A program made the position numbers and the translations under genes. Positions 3,110-24,947 of a stretch of DNA of 57,933 bases are shown here, in pieces. The DNA is from Omnitrophica WOR_2 bacterium RIFCSPHIGHO2_02_FULL_50_17 (GTDB lineage Bacteria > Omnitrophota > Gorgyraeia > Zapsychrales > Zapsychraceae). The notes under the pieces were generated by a model. That model saw only the letters and a list, made by a program, of their open reading frames with translations, was not told the origin of the DNA and made no database searches. The first letter of the stretch is position 1. Each line of letters starts with the position of its first letter. Location: positions 6,283-64,215 of the forward strand of contig MHGQ01000049.1 of NCBI GenBank assembly GCA_001805645.1, given 5' to 3'.

Positions 3110-3550
3110 TTATTTTACTCCCTCTTTGCCCAAATGCAGTTCCAAATCACGCGTGCCGTCATTTAAGAGCACCTTGTCCGGTTTTATGTCCAAAACCGTG
3201 CAGGGGCCGATCCTGCCTCCTATTTCAACAATCTCTCCGTCGATAATCGCGCTGGGCCTGACCGTATCCCACAAAATACCGTTGAGGATAAGCCGCTGAG
3301 GTCCGCCGGAAGAAGAACTGACAAAAGGATTCCTTCCCCAGTCTTCAAATGTACTCTTTTTCTTCGGGGGCACAGGAGTTGTGGGAATAGACCCGCTTAT
3401 TTCCACTGCGCCAGGAAGGATATTCTGAGAATCCGAACCCTGGCTGGGACGCGGCCCGGATCCCAGTACCCGAAACGCACGCACCCACACCAAAATCCCA
3501 AGGACGACAAGGACAGGCAATATAATCTTTAGCGTTTTTTCCCTGTTCAT
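3110..3550 (-). CDS. PilP/GspB-like type IV filament assembly protein
   Basis: N-terminal TM, Pro-rich linker, RNPF motif, LNGILW...AIIDG beta domain; follows pilO-like gene. Confidence 0.65.
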   Translation of the reverse strand: MNREKTLKIILPVLVVLGILVWVRAFRVLGSGPRPSQGSDSQNILPGAVEISGSIPTTPVPPKKKSTFEDWGRNPFVSSSSGGPQRLILNGILWDTVRPSAIIDGEIVEIGGRIGPCTVLDIKPDKVLLNDGTRDLELHLGKEGVK

Positions 3551-3552
3551 GG

Positions 3553-4083
3553 CTATGGCCTTAAATACACATCCAGCGTCAAATTCGATCGGACGCGGGG
3601 AAGAATGGACTCCTCCCGTCGTATCGCAAACTTTTTGACCGCGACGATGCCTTCCGTCGAGTCTTCCAGGACCCCCAGAAACAGCCCCAAATCTTTGTAT
3701 TGCGACTCAATTTCCATGCCAATGGGCAGGCGTTGATACGCCGGATTATCTGTCTTTTCAATTTCCAGCGGCGTGATAGACAAAAAGTTGATGTTGAAGG
3801 CCTTCCCCTGTTTTGTGATTTCATCCATAACCGAAGAGACCTCTTCACGCGCCAGCAAACGCCCTTTCAGAGAAATGCCCCTGCCCTTCTCCAGGGTGCG
3901 ATGCACCGTGTCTAATTCCTGCTCAAGGACGCGCAGTCTCTCGCCGGCCAGACGGACCTTGCCGGCCAGCGGCCATATGAAAATTATAGCAACAAGGATA
4001 ACAACCGCCCCTGCCGCCGACATTATTATAAGTTTACTGTTCCATTTCATGGCTGTCCCCGCCAGGATCATTCGGCCTCGCAA
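3553..4083 (-). CDS. pilO: PilO-like alignment subcomplex protein
   Basis: TM + coiled coil + ferredoxin-like part (LPIGMEIESQYKDLGLFL); downstream of PilMN. Confidence 0.75.
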   Translation of the reverse strand: MRGRMILAGTAMKWNSKLIIMSAAGAVVILVAIIFIWPLAGKVRLAGERLRVLEQELDTVHRTLEKGRGISLKGRLLAREEVSSVMDEITKQGKAFNINFLSITPLEIEKTDNPAYQRLPIGMEIESQYKDLGLFLGVLEDSTEGIVAVKKFAIRREESILPRVRSNLTLDVYLRP

Positions 4084-5765: not shown

Positions 5766-6626
5766 CTACCAGCTTGTCACAAATTTTCCCTGACCGAGAA
5801 TGATACTTTGAATCTCATTGCTGTTATAAGTTTCGTATTCGGATATAGACGGATCTGTTCTGGTGCTTGCCGTGATGTATATCCGCTGATAACGCACCGT
5901 CACAGCATCAAAATCAACGGTTGTTACGCTTCCGTTAATCGTCTCAACCGGGTTTGAAACCGCGCTCCAACTTGTGCCGTTGCTGGAAGACTGTATCTGG
6001 TATGTCGTAATTTTATTTCCCGGGGGCTCGTCGAACGCCACCCTGTCAAATGTCTGAGCGCTCCCTAAATCCATCGCCAGCCACTCGGGACTTCCGGCGG
6101 AAGGAACGCCATTGGCACGCCATTTTGTGCTGGTTTGGCCGTCATTGGCTTTATCAGGAGTATCAACCCCCTTGTAAGAAGAGGCTGATGCCGTTGCCGT
6201 CAGGGAAAGATTGGTCAACCCTGAGGTTGTAGTAGAGATATTTCTCTCCTCCACCCTTCTCTTAGCAACCGGATTGGTATCATTGGGGACATATCCCTCA
6301 GAGACAATGGTATATGTGCTATCGCCGTTATCCGCGGTCGTTACCGTATAGGTGCCTGCGCCGAAGGAGATATCCGATTCCCCCCACCCCACACTCTGTC
6401 CGTCCGTCGTCAATGCCCACCGCGCCTTGGCCAGACCCGCCTCAGCGACATAGTAAGCCTTCGCATCTATAAGCTCGGCGCCGGCATTTTTTATATCATC
6501 ACTCACCATAACCACAAACGCCAGGGCAATGATCGTTAACCCCACCAGGACAGCGAAGGCGGCGATGAGGGCTGCCCCCTTTTCCTCTCCCCTCAAATCT
6601 AAACTGGGCTTGCGATGTCCATTCAT
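5766..6626 (-). CDS. PilX-like minor pilin with C-terminal F5/8 type C (discoidin) domain
   Basis: G|AALI prepilin site lacking Glu5; KAYYVAEAGL PilX motif; ASASS...ANDGQTSTKW...EWLAMDLG...RYQRIYIT...ISEYE discoidin pattern. Confidence 0.8.
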   Translation of the reverse strand: MNGHRKPSLDLRGEEKGAALIAAFAVLVGLTIIALAFVVMVSDDIKNAGAELIDAKAYYVAEAGLAKARWALTTDGQSVGWGESDISFGAGTYTVTTADNGDSTYTIVSEGYVPNDTNPVAKRRVEERNISTTTSGLTNLSLTATASASSYKGVDTPDKANDGQTSTKWRANGVPSAGSPEWLAMDLGSAQTFDRVAFDEPPGNKITTYQIQSSSNGTSWSAVSNPVETINGSVTTVDFDAVTVRYQRIYITASTRTDPSISEYETYNSNEIQSIILGQGKFVTSW

Positions 6627-7135
6627 TGGTTTCTTGCATAAGCGCTGGACGCCAGGGTCAATGTCTCATCGTCTTTGTCCATTGTCAAACTAACCGTAAT
6701 AACCCGTATCCCATCACGTTTGGTCTGGGTGCTTGTACCGCCGGGCGGATTCAAGAGGGTATTGTTCACATCCAGGTAAGAAAGCCCAAAGGTCTGGACA
6801 TTCGAGGCCAGGATGGTTGTAACCGCCCCTTCCATCCTTATCAGATTACTGCCGCTGGTATCGAGTGACACCGTCTCATCGGTCCCATTGCCGTCCAAGT
6901 CCGCCAAAAAAGTGATCTGATTATCCTTGGCATCCGTGATGCTGTTGGTCTGGCCCAGCTCGCGGATCATCCGTGCCATCGCTGAGCCCGCCTCCTGCCG
7001 GATCTGGGTCCGGTCCAAGGCCGTGCCCCATGTTTTGATTGCGACGGCAGAAATCCATAAGACAGAGACGGCCAGAATCGAAAACAAGACGATGACAATA
7101 AGAACTTCGGTTAAGGTAAATCCTTTATTCATCAA
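6623..7135 (-). CDS. PilW/GspJ-like minor pilin
   Basis: KG|FTLTEVLIV class III signal. Confidence 0.85.
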   Translation of the reverse strand: MMNKGFTLTEVLIVIVLFSILAVSVLWISAVAIKTWGTALDRTQIRQEAGSAMARMIRELGQTNSITDAKDNQITFLADLDGNGTDETVSLDTSGSNLIRMEGAVTTILASNVQTFGLSYLDVNNTLLNPPGGTSTQTKRDGIRVITVSLTMDKDDETLTLASSAYARNQ

Positions 7136-7518
7136 TTTTTGGATATATAGGTGACAAGAGGGACACTCACCTCATTGGCCTTGAATGTCCAGTAGGTCGT
7201 CACCGTCACCTGCTTTAAATCCGTCTGCGCGGTGGCAACACTGACCTCTCTCTGAAAGCCGGCAAAACCCGATACGCTTGCTTTAGCCTCATTGACAATC
7301 CCGGTGTCAAAATCAAGATTTTTGATTTCCTCCAGCCTCCGTTGGGAAAGATTCACGGCAATGACGGTATTTTCCGCATCAACGCTCGTAGCGAGGGCGG
7401 TGCTGAAAAGTCCAAGAACAGCCATAACACCCACTGTGAAAACGATAAGGGTCAAGAGGATTTCCAGTAACGTGAAACCGAAGGTTCTGCGAAGCAAGCC
7501 GCACCTTTCCGATCGCAT
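7132..7518 (-). CDS. PilV/GspI-like minor pilin
   Basis: FG|FTLLEILLTL class III signal; LSQRRLEEIK helix. Confidence 0.85.
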   Translation of the reverse strand: MRSERCGLLRRTFGFTLLEILLTLIVFTVGVMAVLGLFSTALATSVDAENTVIAVNLSQRRLEEIKNLDFDTGIVNEAKASVSGFAGFQREVSVATAQTDLKQVTVTTYWTFKANEVSVPLVTYISKN

Positions 7519-7973
7519 CAGGGCTGGGCATCCCGTCCGGCGTTGGAGACATAGATACAGCTCGAACCGTTTGTTTCTACAACAGCATCGCTGGTGATGG
7601 TCGCACTGCCGTTGCCGCTGGATCCCACCGAATAAATGACATAAAACTTGCTGTTGGTTCCGCCCAGGACATACCCGTAATCGGCGCCGGTGGAGCTAAA
7701 GGGGTCTGTGGGAACGTAATCAATGATATTGGGAACAGCGGAGGCCAAAGCGGTCTGGAGGGCTGAGGAGCCTGTGGCCGGATAGGCATTATTATTATGG
7801 ATGTAATAACTCTCGACGGCCGCCTGCAAGGTTCTTAACTCCGCCTTGGCCTTGGCGATGTTGCCTTCGTCCTGCATCCCTTTAAAGCGCGGGAGGGCCA
7901 GTCCCACCAAAATGGAGATAACCGCAATGACAATCAATAATTCAATGATTGTAAAACCTTTTTTTCCCGTCAT
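7518..7973 (-). CDS. Major type IV (pseudo)pilin
   Basis: KG|FTIIELLIVIAVI; AKAELRTLQAAVESY; DPF and YSVG G-like motifs; directly after the platform gene. Confidence 0.88.
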   Translation of the reverse strand: MTGKKGFTIIELLIVIAVISILVGLALPRFKGMQDEGNIAKAKAELRTLQAAVESYYIHNNNAYPATGSSALQTALASAVPNIIDYVPTDPFSSTGADYGYVLGGTNSKFYVIYSVGSSGNGSATITSDAVVETNGSSCIYVSNAGRDAQP

Positions 7974-7995
7974 CTCCCCCGTCCTTTCCTCTAAT

Positions 7996-9213
7996 TTATG
8001 GCGACCTCAAGGTCTTAATCATATCAAACATCGGCAAAAGCATCGAGGCCATGATAAACCCCACGACAGCCCCCAGAATAACCAGCAGGATCGGCTCGAT
8101 AAGCGTCGTCAATTTGCGCACCGAGAATTTTATGGAAGTATCATACAGATCGGCCACCTTATTCAACATATAACCCAATCTCCCCGTTTCCTCTCCGACA
8201 GCAATCATCTGGACGGCATCCGGAGGGAATTCTTCGCTGACTTTGAGGGGTTCGGCAATTCTGTCGCCACGCTCAACGCCCTCGCGCACATTCCGGACGG
8301 CCTGGCCGATAATCTCGTTATTCACCACATCGCGGACAATGTCCAGAGACTGTAAGATAGGAACGCCGCTTTCGACAAGGGTCGCCAGGGTACGGCTGAA
8401 ACGGGAAATGATCACCTTGCGCACCAAAGGCCCGACCACCGGCACGTCTAGCTGCAGACGATCAAACCACAACCGTCCCATTTTTGTCTGAACATATTTA
8501 CGCATGCCAAAGATACCTAAGCCGAGTCCCAGCACAACAAGATACCATGCCTTTTTTAACCCCACGCCGAATTCATAGACAATAATGGTCGGCACGGGCA
8601 GAGACACGTTGCTCTCTTTGAAAATCTCCACGAACTGCGGGATGACAAATGTTACGATTAATATTATAACAAGAAGTCCCGCGGAAAGTAATATCATCGG
8701 ATAAAAAAAAGCACCCTGGATTTTCTGCCTTAGCTCCTCCTGTTGCTCGACATAAACCGCCAGGCGGCTTAACACCAAATTCAGTTTACCGCTTGTCTCG
8801 CCGGCCTTAACCGTATGGATAAAAACCTTAGGAAAAACACGCGCATGTTTCGCCAGGGCATCGGAGAAAGAGGACCCGGCCTCGACCGATCGGCCGACAT
8901 CCTCAATAATCCTTTTCAGCTTTTTGTTCTCGGTCTGCTGGGAGATTGTCCGCAGACTGCTGATAATCGTCAGACCCGACTCAATCATGTTTGCAAGCTG
9001 GATATTAAAAAAAATAATATCTTCAGACCGTATCCTCCTTAAGCGGCTGCCGATACCCTCCAGATTAATTCCCGGGATAGCCTCCCGAATCTGAATGGGC
9101 ATATAACCCATCTTCCGCAGTTTATCGGCCACCTCGGCCGGCGAGAGGGCGTCCAAAGTCCCCTGGACAAGCTTGCCGTTTTCGTCCCTTGCTTTGTAGA
9201 GATATGTGGACAT
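7996..9213 (-). CDS. pilC: Type IV pilus inner-membrane platform protein PilC/GspF
   Basis: MSTYLYKARDENG start at 9213 (the ORF track extension to 9297 is translated repeat); GETSGKL and GEETGRL F-domain motifs. Confidence 0.95.
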   Translation of the reverse strand: MSTYLYKARDENGKLVQGTLDALSPAEVADKLRKMGYMPIQIREAIPGINLEGIGSRLRRIRSEDIIFFNIQLANMIESGLTIISSLRTISQQTENKKLKRIIEDVGRSVEAGSSFSDALAKHARVFPKVFIHTVKAGETSGKLNLVLSRLAVYVEQQEELRQKIQGAFFYPMILLSAGLLVIILIVTFVIPQFVEIFKESNVSLPVPTIIVYEFGVGLKKAWYLVVLGLGLGIFGMRKYVQTKMGRLWFDRLQLDVPVVGPLVRKVIISRFSRTLATLVESGVPILQSLDIVRDVVNNEIIGQAVRNVREGVERGDRIAEPLKVSEEFPPDAVQMIAVGEETGRLGYMLNKVADLYDTSIKFSVRKLTTLIEPILLVILGAVVGFIMASMLLPMFDMIKTLRSP

Positions 9214-18852: not shown

Positions 18853-20787
18853 TTAAGATCCCGGCAAAGAAAAATAAAATACAGAGCCTTTATCCGGCGC
18901 TGACTCTACCCATATACGCCCGCCGTGGCGCTCCACAATCTTTTTGCATACGGCAAGGCCGATGCCGCTGCCGGGGTATTCATCCCGGGGATACAGCCGC
19001 TGAAAAATCTGAAAAATCTTTTCATAATGTTCCGGCGCTATCCCGATGCCGTTATCCGTGACCGAAAAAACGAAAACCTTACCCTCCGGGCGGCAGGAAA
19101 TATGAACGCGCGGGGCGGTATCCTTTTTACGAAATTTAATGGCATTGGCGATAAGGTTCTGAAAAACCTGCACCATTTGAATATCATCCGCCCTGACCTT
19201 CGGCAGAGGATCCCGCGTAATCTCGACGCCATTTTCAACAATCGCCGGCTGGAGGTTTTGCATGGCCGCCTCCAACGCCTTTTCGCAGTCCATCAACGCA
19301 AGCTCTTTGGCACGGGTGCCCACCCGCGAAAACGTCAAAAGGTCGTTGAGAAGATCCTTCATCCTCTTGGCGCCGTCAACGGCAAACCCGATAAATTCAT
19401 CCGCGTCCGCGTCCAGCCGTCCCTGATAACGCCTAGCCAATAACTGCACATAACTGGCGACCATCCGCAGCGGCTCCTGCAAATCATGGGAGGCCACATA
19501 AGCAAACTGCTCCAGATCCTTGTTGGAGCGCTCCAGATCTTGGGCCTGATGGGCTAAGACATCCCTGGACTCCTCAAGCCGTTTCCTGGCCTCCTCGATA
19601 TCCTGCGTCAGATTGAGAGCCGCCATGCGCGAGGTCTTTAACTGTTCGAGACGCCGCTGTAAGTCCACCGTCAGTTTATTCAGTTCTTCCTCACTATGTT
19701 TACGTTCCGTGACATCCTGAAAAACCTCCAGGACAGCCCTTTTCCCGCCGTAACCCATCCCTGCATGAAAAATTTGGAATGCCCTGCCTCCAAATGCGCC
19801 GCCCACCTCTAAACTCTTGATTTGACCGGCGGGAATTCCCTTCCGCAAGGGACAATCGGTGCATTGATTCTTGTCGTCCTTATAAACAGACCAGCACCTC
19901 TGGCCGATGGCAGAGGTGCCGACGATGGTCTCAAGGACACGATTGACGTAAAGAATACGTCCGTCTTCATCCACGATATCCATGGCCAAGGGAATGGTCC
20001 CCAGGATCTTCTCACTCAACTCATTCGTCTGCCGGAGCTTATCCTGCACGTCCTTACGCTCTTGCGTCTCCCGCTGTAATTCATTGTTGGAACGCTCCAG
20101 CCTGACATTCGTCTCCCTCAATTCTTCCATCACTCTCTGATAAAATAAAACAATAAACCACACCACGATAAAATAGGCAAGCAGCCGTAAGCAATGCCAC
20201 CACCACCAGACAGGACACCATAAGCGGGAATATTCGAATAGAATGCCCGCGGCGCCCGATAAGGCGCACAGACCCGCCATCATCAATTCCAGCCAGTCCG
20301 GCCGCGCGCGGTAAAGTGTCATAAAGCGGACGGCGGCCATGGAAAAGAAAAGGCCGGCGGCGATATTCAATCCCCTGGCCGTCATGGAAAAATTCCCGCC
20401 GCTGACCATCACTGGGACCGCTTCCGAAAAACGAAGAGAGAAAAAGACCGTGCCAACCGTCATTACGACAACGAGTCTTGGCAGTCCTTGGGCCATCCGC
20501 GGCGAAATGAACCTCGAGGGAACCCAGGTCAAAGCAAAAAACAAACCGCCAACTAAAATAGCCAGGCTGTGCAGCCAGACAAAATTATTGCCGGTGCTGC
20601 TGACGGCGTGAAACAAATCCAAGATACCCATCCCCAAGAGGGCGCACAGGCTCCAGACGCCGTAAACAGGATCGACTCTGTGTTTCTCGGATAAAAGGAT
20701 AAGAAATGCCAGGGCAAAGGCCGCAAATGCCCCGCCCCCCTCCACAACCGCATGGAAGGGGGGATAAATCCATACAGGGTGCATCAA
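18853..20787 (-). CDS. Membrane-bound PAS sensor histidine kinase; probable 5' frameshift (natural start likely 20879)
   Basis: Multi-TM input, PAS, H-box FAYVASHDLQEPLRMV, NLIANAIKF, DNGIGI, GSGIGL. Confidence 0.92.
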   Translation of the reverse strand: MMHPVWIYPPFHAVVEGGGAFAAFALAFLILLSEKHRVDPVYGVWSLCALLGMGILDLFHAVSSTGNNFVWLHSLAILVGGLFFALTWVPSRFISPRMAQGLPRLVVVMTVGTVFFSLRFSEAVPVMVSGGNFSMTARGLNIAAGLFFSMAAVRFMTLYRARPDWLELMMAGLCALSGAAGILFEYSRLWCPVWWWWHCLRLLAYFIVVWFIVLFYQRVMEELRETNVRLERSNNELQRETQERKDVQDKLRQTNELSEKILGTIPLAMDIVDEDGRILYVNRVLETIVGTSAIGQRCWSVYKDDKNQCTDCPLRKGIPAGQIKSLEVGGAFGGRAFQIFHAGMGYGGKRAVLEVFQDVTERKHSEEELNKLTVDLQRRLEQLKTSRMAALNLTQDIEEARKRLEESRDVLAHQAQDLERSNKDLEQFAYVASHDLQEPLRMVASYVQLLARRYQGRLDADADEFIGFAVDGAKRMKDLLNDLLTFSRVGTRAKELALMDCEKALEAAMQNLQPAIVENGVEITRDPLPKVRADDIQMVQVFQNLIANAIKFRKKDTAPRVHISCRPEGKVFVFSVTDNGIGIAPEHYEKIFQIFQRLYPRDEYPGSGIGLAVCKKIVERHGGRIWVESAPDKGSVFYFSLPGS

Positions 20788-20875
20788 AAAACATCAAGGA
20801 TAACGCCTCCAGCGACGGGGAGGATAATTCCGAAAAACAAAATCCACACGACAGCCTTTGAGAATGACGGCGGCC

Positions 20876-21328
20876 TCATGAGCCTATATCCTCTTTTCTC
20901 TTCAATCTGACCAAAAACTTAAGGTCTTCGATGTCCTTCGGCCGCCCCGCGGCTCGCTTCATTTCTATAAGACTGTCCAATGAAGCAAACCAGGCGAAGG
21001 TGCTGCCGAACTTCGCCTTCACCTTATCTTCCCAAACCTTCTCAAAGGTTATTCCTTTGACAAAGGGGTGAATATCCGTCTCGACGATATATTGCCGTAT
21101 CAACAGTTTCTTCGTTAAGATATCCTTGACGGTCACGTCCGTAACGTCATAACCAAAATCCCTCAACGCCTCCCGAGTCCTATGCGCATTGGATTCCTCC
21201 GGTTCTATGAATATATCAATGTCCAGCGTGGCGCGGGAATAGCCGTGAATGGGGAAAGCCGTCGCGCCGATGACGACGAACTTCACCTTATGTTCTTTTA
21301 ATGATTTGAGTAGTTTTTCCGTATCCAT
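20876..21328 (-). CDS. Minimal nucleotidyltransferase-fold protein (putative TA component)
   Basis: VVIGATAFPIHGYSRATLDIDIFI (G..DxD motif) and C-terminal MKRAAGRPKDIEDL. Confidence 0.85.
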   Translation of the reverse strand: MDTEKLLKSLKEHKVKFVVIGATAFPIHGYSRATLDIDIFIEPEESNAHRTREALRDFGYDVTDVTVKDILTKKLLIRQYIVETDIHPFVKGITFEKVWEDKVKAKFGSTFAWFASLDSLIEMKRAAGRPKDIEDLKFLVRLKRKEDIGS

Positions 21329-21470
21329 ATTTTCCGGCGAGCCTGCGCATCTCCTGGGTTTTCTTAAACATCATCTGGAATCTCTGTCTCGTCGTTAAAG
21401 ACAAAAGATACTTCAGCTCAAACTCGATCTCTCTGTTTTCGTCGTGTTTGCTTAACTTCAATACGGCCAT
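21288..21470 (-). CDS. Small hypothetical protein, putative partner of the nucleotidyltransferase
   Basis: 60 aa, good SD (GAGAGGGG), overlaps the NTase start; typical two-gene layout. Confidence 0.7.
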   Translation of the reverse strand: MAVLKLSKHDENREIEFELKYLLSLTTRQRFQMMFKKTQEMRRLAGKYGYGKTTQIIKRT

Positions 21471-21512
21471 AACCCCTCTCTCGGCTGTTTTACTCCCCTG
21501 TCCCCGGCGGCC

Positions 21513-23207
21513 TCATGAGCCTGCATCCTTAAAAGAAAGGTCGTAGGGCGGTTCTTTGCCCGCCTGACGGGAAAGCTCGTTAATCTGCTGTTTAAGCTCC
21601 ACAATACGCAATTCGCGCCCAGCGGCCAGCTGGTTAAACCGCTCCAGCTCCTCATTGGACTTGGACAATTCTACGGTGCGCTCCAGTAATGCCTCCCGGG
21701 CCCATTCCCGTTCTGTGATATCAACAGCCATGCCGGAGAGCAACCTCTTGCCCTCCAGAGTGGCACTGATTAAAATCTTTTTGGGTTTATGATTCTTAGT
21801 TACCACATCCAGCTCATAGTTATCCACCCTGCCCGATTCCTTGAGTCTCGCGATAAAAACCTCACGGTCCTGCGGGTTCTCATATCGAGCAACAACCCTG
21901 GTCTTTTTCATCTCCTCAGGAGAGTCAAATTCCATCATCTTGGCCATGGCGTCGTTAACATAAAAAATTTGGCCATCCAGGGATGAACTGAAGACACCCA
22001 CCAGGGCGTTATCCACCAGATTACGGTATTTCTCTTCGGATCGCCTCAAATGTTCTTCCGCTTCCTTTCTTCGGCGCATTTCCTCATCAAGGCTATCCCG
22101 GCTGGCCATGACCTTTTTCAAATTTGCCGTCATCTGATCAAACGCCCTGGAAAGCTGGCCTATCTCGTCTTTCGCGTTTGTGCCGACTTTATAATCGAGG
22201 TTCCCCCGGCCAATAGTCTCGACTCCTTTATGCAAGGCGCGAATCGGGTCTGAGATTATCTTTGCCGTCGCCCAAACAACCAACGCCACAATCAACAAAA
22301 CAATGCCCTCAAAAAAGACAAGCATGTCTCTCAACTTATCAATTCGCTCAAAGGCCTCCTCTTTATCCTGCTCAGCCACGAGCGTCCATTTAAAATCACC
22401 CAGGGAAAGGCACATGGAGGAGCCAACGACCGGCACCCTACGGTAATCGAGCCACTCACCCCTAACCTCAGTATCTTCCTCAAGACATTTCCTCACAGGA
22501 TAGGTGTCCACGCGCTGACGGAAGGCGGAATTATCCATGAACCGAGAACTTGTGACCATAACTCTGTCCTGATTGACGATATACGTCTCGTCGGTCCTGG
22601 CGATATGCTGAAACTGGGTCTTGGCGCCGATATCCAGTTTAAACCTGCCGGTCATAATCCTGTCCAGCATCGCCATATTGAAATGATTGACAAGAATGCC
22701 GATGACCTGGGTGTGGCCCCGCTTTCTTATGGGAGCGGCCACCTCTATCCCAACGGTACCGTCTAATGCCTTATGAAGATCAGCGATGTAAGGGGAATTG
22801 GTCCCATGGATGAAATATTTTTTCGCGGATTCATCCAGACCGACCCTGGCGGGGATGGTGGAGGCCGCAACCTTGCCCGACGCATCAAGGATATCTATAA
22901 AATTCAAATTCTCCTCAAGGATTTTTTTGCGCTTTAAGAGGTATTCATTAAGATTTTCCCCTGTCGTCCCTGCTTCCAAAGACTCGGCGATAAAACCGTC
23001 GGAGGCAAAATCCTCCGTCCTTGTCTTTAACCGGCTTAAATTCAAAAGAACCTCCCCCTCCCTGATCTCCGAGACAACATATAAAGCGTTTAAGGCGGCC
23101 CGGTGAAGGAAATCCTTGGTCCCGTAAAAACTCACCACGCCCAAAAAGGCGAGGGAGATCAATAGGATGAAAAAAAATAAAATTAAGAGCTTCGTTCTAA
23201 TGGACAT
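21513..23207 (-). CDS. Cache-HAMP-PAS sensor lacking a kinase/output domain
   Basis: 2 TM, periplasmic Cache-like region, HAMP (DEIGQLSRAFDQM), PAS, ends in coiled coil AGRELRIVELKQQI; no H-box or HATPase. Confidence 0.85.
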   Translation of the reverse strand: MSIRTKLLILFFFILLISLAFLGVVSFYGTKDFLHRAALNALYVVSEIREGEVLLNLSRLKTRTEDFASDGFIAESLEAGTTGENLNEYLLKRKKILEENLNFIDILDASGKVAASTIPARVGLDESAKKYFIHGTNSPYIADLHKALDGTVGIEVAAPIRKRGHTQVIGILVNHFNMAMLDRIMTGRFKLDIGAKTQFQHIARTDETYIVNQDRVMVTSSRFMDNSAFRQRVDTYPVRKCLEEDTEVRGEWLDYRRVPVVGSSMCLSLGDFKWTLVAEQDKEEAFERIDKLRDMLVFFEGIVLLIVALVVWATAKIISDPIRALHKGVETIGRGNLDYKVGTNAKDEIGQLSRAFDQMTANLKKVMASRDSLDEEMRRRKEAEEHLRRSEEKYRNLVDNALVGVFSSSLDGQIFYVNDAMAKMMEFDSPEEMKKTRVVARYENPQDREVFIARLKESGRVDNYELDVVTKNHKPKKILISATLEGKRLLSGMAVDITEREWAREALLERTVELSKSNEELERFNQLAAGRELRIVELKQQINELSRQAGKEPPYDLSFKDAGS

Positions 23208-23238
23208 CGGTTAATGGCCTTATATTCTTTTAAAATCT

Positions 23239-23247
23239 ATTTTAACA
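23239..23247 (-). promoter_or_regulatory. Putative extended -10 promoter for the signalling block
   Basis: TGTTAAAAT (TGnTAAAAT) in a very AT-rich 76-nt gap; no good -35. Confidence 0.35.
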
Positions 23248-23283
23248 TTGCCGCTTTTAAATTAAATTAGAAACATTATTATT

Positions 23284-24900
23284 TTATTTATAGGGAGGGA
23301 AGGCCGGCTTATCGGTTTTCTCGCTGACATCGCCGGTCATAATCTTGGGCGTTAAAAAGATTACGATCTCAGTTTTGGAAACCGAGTCGCTTTGGCTGCG
23401 GAAGGCAATGCCTAAAAGAGGGATATCCCCCAAAAGGGGGACTTTTTTGGTTGATTTAATCGTCTCTTCCTTGATGAGTCCGCCGATCACGATCGAGACG
23501 CCGTCTTTGACCATGACAGTCGTCTCGGCCTCCGAGGTCTCGACAATGGGGATCGTGTTGTTGTTGCTGGTCGTCAGATTGCTGGTGACGGAGCTCACCT
23601 CAGGCTTGATCTTCATGGTGATAAACCCGTCATTGTGGATGGTGGGGGTGACGAACAATTTGATGCCCACCTCAATAAAATTGACGCTCTCAGCCGTCGT
23701 GGTTGGGCCTGAGGCGGGTGTAGTTGTGGTTGTGGTCACGTAGGGTTCTGTCGAGCCGACCAAAATTTTGGCCTCTTTATTGTTGACGGCCGTAATCCGC
23801 GGGCTGGAAAGGATGTTGGTCACCCCCACGGTATCCAGGGCTTCAATAAGGGCCGTGTAATCGTCGCTCGAGAGCGTCCCGATGCTGAGCTTTCCTTTTT
23901 TATCCGCCGCCCCTAAGACGTCGAAATCGCCGATCAGATCCAGGCTGTGGTAGTTCGAGACAATAGCCTCCCAGTCCACCCCCATCTTATGCTCGTTATT
24001 AAGGGCGATCTGGATGATCTTGGCCTCAATCAGGACTTGTTTATCTTTCTCGTCAAAGGCCTCGATAATCCGGCGGACTTTGTTCATGACCTGCGCGGTA
24101 TCCGAGACGACAATCTTGTTGGAGCGTTCGTCGAATTTCATGGTGCCGATCGCGGGCGTCAAAACCTCTGTAACCTTGCCGGAGATATCCTCGGCCTTGG
24201 CATACCCCAGAGGAAAAACTTCTGTCTCGACGGAGACATCCACCTGCTGGATAATCCCCTCCATCTCCTCCAGCTTTTTCGACTCGTCCATAAGGATCAA
24301 CGTACCGGATTTGGAGTCGGCAATGACCTTGCCGGCTTTCCCCTTGACCTCATTAAGGATAACCGCCACATCCGGCGCCTTGGCAAACAGAAGCTGGCGA
24401 ATGCGCGTGCGGACCTCCTGGCCGAATTTATGGCCGTACTTGGCCTCATACTCCTGGTCGGTCATGACTTTAAGGATGCCGCTCGCCGAGTCCGTCGGAG
24501 TCTGACGACCGTCTTCTATGTAGGCCCAGCCGTAGGCCTCGACGATAATCCTTAAGGCCTCCTTCACCTCGATATCTTTCAGGAAAACCGTGACCCTTCC
24601 CTTGACATTCTGTCCTGCCACGATATTCAGCCCGCTTTTCTGCGAGATCAGCTTCAAGACATCCAGGATGTCCATGTTCTTCAAATCCAGGACATCCAAA
24701 ATCTTCTTCTCTCCTTTTTGCGACGATGAGGGGACAGATGAGCCGGCAGAAACAGGCACAGCGGCTTCCTCCTCGGCAACCAAAGGAATGGTCCCCAAAG
24801 AGACAGGGGGCTCCGTCTCCTCGGCCGCGGCAAAAGTCACAAGACAAGCGGACAGGCCCAGCGCAACGCAAAAACTTAATAAAAAGAGATGTGCCCTCAT
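23284..24900 (-). CDS. gspD: Secretin (GspD/PilQ family)
   Basis: Signal peptide from 24900 (ORF track 24939), STN/N0 and N3 repeats, QVLIEAKII, ILSSPRI, GIKLFVTP, IVIGGLI, LLGDIPLLG. Confidence 0.93.
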   Translation of the reverse strand: MRAHLFLLSFCVALGLSACLVTFAAAEETEPPVSLGTIPLVAEEEAAVPVSAGSSVPSSSQKGEKKILDVLDLKNMDILDVLKLISQKSGLNIVAGQNVKGRVTVFLKDIEVKEALRIIVEAYGWAYIEDGRQTPTDSASGILKVMTDQEYEAKYGHKFGQEVRTRIRQLLFAKAPDVAVILNEVKGKAGKVIADSKSGTLILMDESKKLEEMEGIIQQVDVSVETEVFPLGYAKAEDISGKVTEVLTPAIGTMKFDERSNKIVVSDTAQVMNKVRRIIEAFDEKDKQVLIEAKIIQIALNNEHKMGVDWEAIVSNYHSLDLIGDFDVLGAADKKGKLSIGTLSSDDYTALIEALDTVGVTNILSSPRITAVNNKEAKILVGSTEPYVTTTTTTPASGPTTTAESVNFIEVGIKLFVTPTIHNDGFITMKIKPEVSSVTSNLTTSNNNTIPIVETSEAETTVMVKDGVSIVIGGLIKEETIKSTKKVPLLGDIPLLGIAFRSQSDSVSKTEIVIFLTPKIMTGDVSEKTDKPAFPPYK

Positions 24901-24947
24901 AAATACCCTTGAGAATCCTTGTTTGTCCACGGCCCACATTACACTAT

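Follow-up and report, generated by a model that had tools for sequence, protein, structure and literature searches.

A nucleotidyltransferase module flanked by a direct repeat at a sensor–kinase ATGA overlap in Omnitrophota: candidate scar of a microhomology-mediated insertion

The stretch of DNA analysed here (the window) comprises 57,933 nucleotides of contig MHGQ01000049.1 from Omnitrophica WOR_2 bacterium RIFCSPHIGHO2_02_FULL_50_17. It contains a small nucleotidyltransferase (NTase) module, which consists of a 60-amino-acid (aa) open reading frame (ORF) and a 150-aa NTase and is located between the genes of a HAMP-PAS sensor and a histidine kinase. The order of transcription is sensor, 60-aa ORF, NTase and kinase, all on the minus strand, and the module is flanked by an 18-bp direct repeat which covers the stop/start overlap (ATGA) of the neighbouring genes. 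Judging from the sequence of the joints, the repeat is probably (at about 0.6) the scar of a recombinase-independent, illegitimate insertion of the module, mediated by microhomology and accompanied by duplication of the target. The spread of toxin–antitoxin-like modules that carry no mobility genes of their own is usually left vague, and the joints found here point to microhomology-mediated insertion. The locus forms an allelic series of an empty site, an intact insert, a decayed insert and the same module at a neighbouring junction, in which the joints can be read base by base. It is a clean example of a known recombinase-free route for such modules and represents neither a new mobility mechanism nor a new kind of mobile element.

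The 18-mer CGGCGGCCTCATGAGCCT occurs on the plus strand exactly at 20868-20885 and 21505-21522, as reported in a preliminary description which was made from the letters of the window. There are exactly two copies in the window: no third copy with up to two mismatches was found, and none of 100 shuffled sequences gave a match. The copies lie 637 bp apart (start to start), with 619 bp in between (20886-21504), which comprise a chimeric leader, the 60-aa ORF and the NTase. In a repeat search both copies could be lengthened to 25 nt (20868-20892 and 21505-21529), the two mismatches being adjacent, and the repeat reads AGGAT[GC/AT]AGGCTCATGAGGCCGCCG on the coding (minus) strand. The copy that is upstream in the direction of transcription (21505-21529, exact part 21505-21522) supplies the last codons of the sensor, ending with KDAGS, and its TGA stop. 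The downstream copy (20868-20892, exact part 20868-20885) supplies the last codons of the NTase, ending with EDIGS, its stop and the ATG which starts the kinase in relatives. The ORF coordinates thus agree with both stop assignments made previously. The palindrome CTCATGAG inside the repeat is nearly automatic because a serine codon TCA precedes the ATGA overlap; TCATGA was counted 22 times in the window.

The repeat is real and no artefact of this particular assembly. Public records list the identical NTase on 21 contigs, and both repeat copies were found 637 bp apart in all 12 distinct contigs inspected. Eleven of these came from ENA/Logan and one was NCBI MHHB01000084.1, a contig of the metagenome-assembled genome of Omnitrophica WOR_2 bacterium RIFCSPLOWO2_12_FULL_50_9. 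An assembly artefact, named in the preliminary description as a finding that would overturn it, or a chance repeat has practically negligible probability in view of the shuffled sequences and of the same structure in these independently assembled contigs from several projects.

Look-ups with the exact protein returned occupied contigs only. Three further lineages were reached via kinase orthologues at 85%, 75% and 69% identity (loci L013, L014 and L015). The sensor and the kinase overlap directly by ATGA in both L013 and L014, with no unit between them, and the L014 junction ggttcATGAggccgccgtcatttcc is exactly one repeat copy joined to the downstream flank of the window. The junction predicted for an empty site was ..GATGCAGGCTCATGAGGCCGCCGTCATTC.., while ..GAGGATATAGGCTCATGAGGCCGCCGGGGACAG.. 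was predicted for a circle. L013 and L014 have the predicted empty site, which bears out the proposal that removal of the unit restores the direct ATGA coupling. These comparisons support the view that the 637-bp unit is an insertion relative to the related genomes.

A decayed copy of the module is present at the same sensor–kinase junction in L015 and in its close relative L073 (an NCBI assembly). Both joints are common to the window and L015/L073, the left one reading ..ttcATGAggccggcagggacagaagagtaa and the right one ..gaggaggcgggctcATGAgattgcc. The decayed copy has an additional, repeat-rich insert (roughly 400 bp) in its leader. Its small ORF is intact as far as codon 52, and a deletion removes the NTase from approximately codon 6 up to the final 13 codons. 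In L015/L073 the right repeat copy retains the sensor-type GC, the window having AT instead, which favours an initial duplication that covered at least 23-25 nt and one insertion event common to these loci.

The synonymous divergence (dS) of the kinase from that of the window is 0.80 in L015, 0.36 in L013 and 0.55 in L014. The window is closest to L013 in the kinase, to L014 in the sensor (dS 0.47) and to L015 in the secretin, for which dS is 0.69 between the window and L015 and 2.05 between the window and L013. When positions 18853-24939 of the window are compared with L013, L014, L015 and a rearranged relative, L034, the divergence forms a mosaic. Such a pattern is a sign that the lineages have recombined, the breakpoints being located around the sensor. 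Since the locus is mosaic, it provides no reliable tree, and the empty state may be ancestral or may have resulted from deletion between the repeats.

The closest copies of the module (84-90% nucleotide identity) were all found at this locus in related Omnitrophota, where they occupy a different junction, that of secretin and sensor, about 1.7 kb upstream. The order in L070 is secretin, module A (a 60-aa ORF and a 155-aa NTase), an ATGA overlap, module B (an 82-aa ORF and a 200-aa NTase) and sensor. This order is kept in L068 and in L071/L072, the latter two with deletions; L014 carries module B upstream of its sensor, and L034 is a rearranged derivative. Module B was located at 1939-2782 in L070 and is also present in L071/L072, L034 and L014, as an 82-86-aa ORF with a 200-aa NTase. 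The secretin–sensor spacer in these Omnitrophota is a small island of NTase toxin–antitoxin-like modules. Module A of the relatives has other leaders and a longer NTase tail, ..KKRDVRDAGRGKT followed by the stop, which overlaps the ATG of module B. The ends of the module, both leader and NTase tail, vary between the window and L034, L068 and L070-L072. The flanking repeats vary in length as well: 13 nt in L068 and L071/L072 (GGGAAAGACATGA, matching 13/13 in L071/L072 and 12/13 in L068), 9 nt in L070 (GGGGAAAGA) and 18-25 nt in the window, the polarity of the L068-L072 events not being established.

The leader of the insert is chimeric. Its segment GAGGCCGCCGGGGACAGGGGAGTAAAACAG (21485-21514, minus strand) encodes in frame EAAGDRGVKQ, which corresponds to codons of the small ORF of module B in relatives; 21 of 21 nt match in L072 and 25 of 30 nt in L034 (KAGGDKGVKQ). 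AAAACAG marks the change to the native leader of module A, CCGAGAGAGGGGTT-ATG. This native part (AAAACAGCCGAGAGAGGGGTT, 21471-21491, minus strand) is homologous to the leader which precedes the same module in L070 and L034, with 16 of 20 nt shared with L070. Sequence normally located downstream of A is now upstream of A, which implies a circular, tandem or template-switch intermediate. The heptamer GCCGCCG is common to the module-B donor sequence and the kinase start of the empty alleles and overlaps the repeat. The NTase tail is homologous to the relatives up to ..AAAAGAGGA and is followed by the last codons of the sensor, AGGAT being common to the NTase tail and the sensor end at this right joint. 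There is microhomology of 5-10 nt at each joint, and the point of return lies 25 nt upstream of the point of departure, which results in the duplication. No terminal inverted repeats were found at the ends of the unit and no attC-like region at its 3' side, where the repeat already contains the NTase stop and leaves no non-coding DNA for attC. The earlier statement that no transposase or integrase is encoded holds: no transposase, integrase or recombinase gene was detected in the unit (Pfam on ORFs) or among the called genes within ±10 kb (precomputed Pfam families).

We propose that a small, horizontally mobile two-gene NTase module landed at the sensor–kinase ATGA overlap. The donor may have been the same module where it more commonly resides, about 1.7 kb upstream in the secretin–sensor spacer and beside the MenAT1-like module B. 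Synthesis or end joining would have left the target just past ATGAGGCCGCCG, which has a 7-10-nt match with the donor, and would next have copied 21-30 nt from module B, to which the leader proper of the module was already attached at AAAACAG. After both genes had been copied as far as the lysine-rich NTase tail, AGGAT would have served for the return to the target; as this site precedes the departure point by 25 nt, 18-25 bp would have been duplicated. The chemistry could have been template switching or joining at a staggered break, followed by selection which retained only harmless products. The stop/start overlap falls within the duplication, and for this reason the sensor retains its stop, the NTase gains in-frame sensor codons and a stop, and the kinase retains its ATG and its coupling; an insert can in this way enter a translationally coupled operon and leave it unbroken. 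The flanking repeats would also permit a precise loss of the module. The repeat, which had been described as the boundary of a cassette, is better understood as a target duplication with microhomology at its edges, in agreement with the differing ends and repeat lengths at other sites. Template switching of the types known as microhomology-mediated break-induced replication and fork stalling and template switching (MMBIR/FoSTeS) is a known process, as is homology-facilitated illegitimate recombination in transformable bacteria. The locus resembles MMBIR/FoSTeS-type events in having several novel joints with 5-10 nt of microhomology, an insert derived from two donor segments and a return upstream of the departure point. 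Unlike those events, the mechanism is read here from sequence only, in uncultured Omnitrophota.

Several observations weigh against insertion by microhomology. There is one clean event at this junction, shared by the window and L015, and the mechanism is deduced solely from the anatomy of its joints. CATGA is found at both joints in two well-defined contexts, i.e. between sensor and kinase here and between secretin, module A and module B in L068/L072, which could reflect a site preference, yet it is expected at ATGA overlaps. The two repeat copies differ at 2 of 25 positions in the window and at 9 of 25 in L015, and the L015 copies are hybrids which a crossover inside TCATGAG would also fit. 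The dS of the small ORF between the window and L015 is 0.40 (52 codons, partly overlapped by a second frame) versus 0.69-0.86 for the flanking genes, which hints at later lateral spread into the same site and not at one old event. Finally, the duplication of 18-25 bp is shorter than the >30 bp criterion of Furuta et al.

A crossover of this kind is central to a Campbell-type, site-specific alternative, in which a circle composed of the module and a TCATGAG-centred core was integrated at ATGA overlaps by a recombinase encoded elsewhere and the 18-bp repeat represents the attL/attR core. We consider this distinctly unlikely. It would account for a palindromic core, for CATGA at both joints in the window and in L068/L072, and for the L015 copies, which resemble host-left plus foreign-right and foreign-left plus host-right sequences with only TCATGAG in common. 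The cassette remnant is also less diverged between the window and L015 than the flanks (91% versus 76% nucleotide identity; dS 0.40 versus about 0.8), and the chimeric leader implies a circular or tandem intermediate. However, the unit and the surrounding ±10 kb lack a recombinase, the repeat lengths differ (13 versus 18-25 nt), and the leader and the NTase tail vary by site. The putative core leaves 13 of the 18 repeated bases uncovered, and these agree with the empty-site sequence of the host; TCATGA follows automatically from the TCA codon and the ATGA overlap and is frequent in the window, 40 other members of the family have no flanking repeat, and the L015 pattern fits ordinary divergence of about 20-25% as well. 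A more general form, according to which TCATGA/ACATGA overlaps are the preferred landing site of a very widespread and well conserved family of tiny DUF6036 modules without mobility genes, which move as circles by means of a host recombinase or of their own NTase tailing or priming DNA ends, appears very improbable. If true, it would define a new kind of minimal operon-junction parasite which splices itself into translationally coupled gene pairs.

The repeat might also have been generated by tandem duplication of a block that begins with the module and includes the sensor, joined at GCCGCCG shortly after the kinase start, followed by deletions of the first module and nearly all of the second sensor. 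Of that second sensor, just the final 13-25 nt would then survive, as the downstream repeat copy. In relatives the module is found upstream of the sensor, and the move would accordingly be local (~1.7 kb); there are many microhomology-type deletions in the locus, as well as a 53-nt duplicated secretin end in L034, and the AGGAT microhomology at the right joint is typical of deletion. This course of events is nevertheless unlikely, since at least three separate events are needed versus one for insertion, no two-sensor intermediate occurs among the loci fetched, and tblastn detected no module remnant in the secretin–sensor spacer of the window. A somewhat different proposal, which would alter the polarity of the change and not the origin of the repeat, is that the module is old at this junction and that the 'empty' alleles of L013 and L014 are secondary, having arisen by precise deletion between the repeats. 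The flanks of L015/L073 are the most diverged (dS about 0.8) and yet share the insertion, whereas the closer lineages L013 and L014 (by the kinase dS of 0.36 and 0.55) are without it, and precise deletion classically makes use of direct repeats of 18-25 nt. On the other hand, the mosaic locus yields no reliable tree, two independent precise losses would be required, and the near-identity of the two repeat copies in the window speaks against great age. We regard an old module as possible but doubtful.

Insertions with similar scars have been described for restriction-modification (RM) systems. Their repeats often span a translation start or stop, the target genes remain intact, and operon-like insertions occur (PMC2853133, PMC2875022). 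The module shares with this class (Nobusato 2000, Gene 259:99; Furuta, PMC2853133) the character of a small addiction-type unit without a mobility gene, repeats which align once to the empty site of a relative and lie over a stop/start with the targets intact, an operon-like insertion site and a repeat length that may vary between events. It differs in its cargo, an NTase/small-ORF pair instead of an RM system, and in the length of its repeat: 18-25 bp is long for a transposon but below the working threshold of >30 bp used by Furuta et al. (2010) and inside the range of 19-26 bp quoted there for IS1630 (PMC2853133). Moreover, the donor seems here to be a copy from the same locus, and the joint microhomologies and chimeric leader, undocumented in the RM cases, are readable. 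Like integron cassettes, the module is a small promoter-less unit without its own recombinase, co-directional in a transcription unit. In contrast to them, it has no attC, no integron integrase (±10 kb) or attI is located nearby, and integron cassettes produce no target duplication. Non-autonomous transposons and miniature inverted-repeat transposable elements (MITEs) are similarly flanked by a direct target duplication and have no transposase inside, but the unit described here has no terminal inverted repeats and inconstant ends, and its duplication is long and variable.

The module is probably a pair of an NTase toxin and a small antitoxin, as suggested by its sequence motif, its MenT1/AbiEii-like homology, the MenAT1 precedent and the pattern of decay. 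The NTase (20876-21328, minus strand) scored above the Pfam cut-offs for DUF6036 (33.5 bits) and DUF2204 (27.4 bits), and just below the cut-off for AbiEii (21.6 versus 22.5). The pol-beta motif hG[GS]x9-13Dh[DE]h is present as IGATAFPIHGYSRATLDIDIF at residues 20-40, with GA..(13)..DID at 21-38, and G21, A22, D36 and D38 are invariant in 25 homologues. The protein is 27% identical (E 9e-9) to the MenT1-like NTase of module B, which passes the Pfam AbiEii cut-off (42.7 bits) and matches PDB 8AN4, an AbiEii-family 'bacterial toxin' (E 4e-7). In four independent decayed copies the NTase is deleted or truncated but the small ORF has stayed open, in some cases fused to the NTase's final codons. 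These are module A in L015/L073 (L015 5783-5980; L073 3851-4048) and in L071/L072, and module B in L034 (6546-6806) and in L071/L072; the L071/L072 remnants lie at 2355-2648 in L071 and at 273-566 in L072. Loss of the NTase with retention of the small ORF is expected if the NTase is the toxin. Against this assignment, the AlphaFold model of the NTase is poor (predicted local distance difference test score, pLDDT, 67) and Foldseek matched it to TM1012 only (E 0.04); PDB sequence and profile searches gave the same weak match.

In MenAT1, an NTase toxin is paired with a 68-aa antitoxin (PMC10435456). The module resembles the MenAT1/AbiE systems (DUF1814, i.e. Pfam AbiEii; PMC7450476, PMC10435456, PMC11375011) in having a small upstream ORF (60 aa versus 68 aa in MenA1) followed by a pol-beta-type NTase, and module B of the relatives is their clear homologue. 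It differs from them in the shorter NTase (150 aa), which falls under DUF6036/DUF2204, and in the 60-aa ORF, which has no detectable similarity to the small ORF of module B. The label 'TA-like' (toxin–antitoxin-like) used in the preliminary description is plausible from homology, gene order and decay. The putative antitoxin-like ORF (21288-21470, minus strand) overlaps the start of the NTase by 41 nt and has no family in Pfam, NCBIfam or PADLOC, nor could it be placed in a known antitoxin family; NCBIfam and PADLOC gave nothing useful for the NTase either.

The NTase family comprises 3680 database clusters, and the best 120 of these 3680 are 73-90% identical. A partner ORF of 60-82 aa and its 41-nt overlap with the NTase start are conserved in all phyla sampled, including Planctomycetota, Desulfobacterales, Acidobacteriota, Chloroflexota, Margulisiibacteriota and others. 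Copies of the DUF6036 NTase/small-ORF family were mostly found on short contigs. The preliminary description proposed checking the junctions of homologous cassettes for long duplications; in a survey of 40 more distant family loci in other phyla (14 species-genome loci, 23 JGI metagenome loci whose flanks were usable, L069 and others), none had a flanking repeat above chance, which means that the repeat is no property of the family. No relatives of the NTase were found in viral contigs or phage genomes, and the plasmid homologues were just 27-33% identical. Among the papers searched, none dealt with DUF6036. This uncharacterised and unusually conserved NTase/small-ORF family, related to MenT/AbiEii toxins, is a candidate for functional study.

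The upstream neighbour of the module (21513-23207, minus strand) encodes a membrane sensor of 564 aa with HAMP and PAS domains (Pfam). It has no kinase domain, and the Cache domain attributed to it previously gave no Pfam hit at E <= 0.01. The main kinase ORF downstream (18853-20787, minus strand) encodes 644 aa with PAS, HisKA and HATPase_c domains. The inserted unit's GC content is slightly lower than that of the flanks (46-48% versus 49-55%), and promoter and terminator scans of the unit remained at chance level.

The downstream repeat copy had been proposed to provide the start codon of this kinase. This applies to the 12 related contigs, in all of which the kinase is a single 675-aa ORF beginning at the ATG of the repeat. 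In the window the same ATG opens only 31 codons (MRPPSFSKAVVWILFFGIILPVAGGVILDVF followed by the stop; 20784-20879, minus strand), which represent the kinase N-terminus with the first transmembrane helix in relatives, and the body of the kinase lies in another frame. The kinase of the window is split because a T run on the coding strand is one base short, T6 (A6 on the plus strand, 20786-20791) versus T7 in the 12 contigs. Thus, the idea of a precise stop/start insertion which preserves both neighbours stands as regards the ATGA coupling but not as regards the kinase of the window, which is frameshifted 90 nt downstream. The frameshift is specific to the sequence of the window and could reflect a mistake in assembly or sequencing, a pseudogene or phase variation.

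A mini-ORF of 8 codons, MRPPGTGE and a stop (21490-21516, minus strand), begins at the ATG in the upstream copy of the repeat; its frame and stop are also kept in L015 and L073 (MRPAGTEE and a stop). It may serve translational coupling into the 60-aa ORF or be a mere relic of the duplicated kinase start.

A 43-nt repeat of L034 (43-53 nt) was considered as a second target duplication and dropped, as L070 shows an undisrupted arrangement with which L034 is colinear at its secretin–module junction. The second copy of that repeat belongs to a patch between modules A and B and so provides no evidence for a simple insertion. The patch combines 24 nt from the start of a sensor of the window type, a 13-nt filler and a second secretin 3' end of 53 nt. 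In the same locus, where these changes were noted at 6413-6543 and 6824-8392, little remains of the sensor, which has become an in-frame fusion with the kinase after an almost complete deletion, and the stop of the secretin has changed from TAG to CAG. The patch, the sensor deletion and the mutated secretin stop imply repeated illegitimate rearrangement in the locus.

L015 and L073 contain several copies of a G/C-rich palindromic MITE-like repeat, ..CCCCCTCTTTTTCT..AGAGGGGGTGAGGGGGAG.., at about 3500-3640 and 5430-5560 in L015 and about 3440-3740 and 7770-7925 in L073. The leader of the decayed cassette holds one of these copies, which in L073 has a further insert nested in it.

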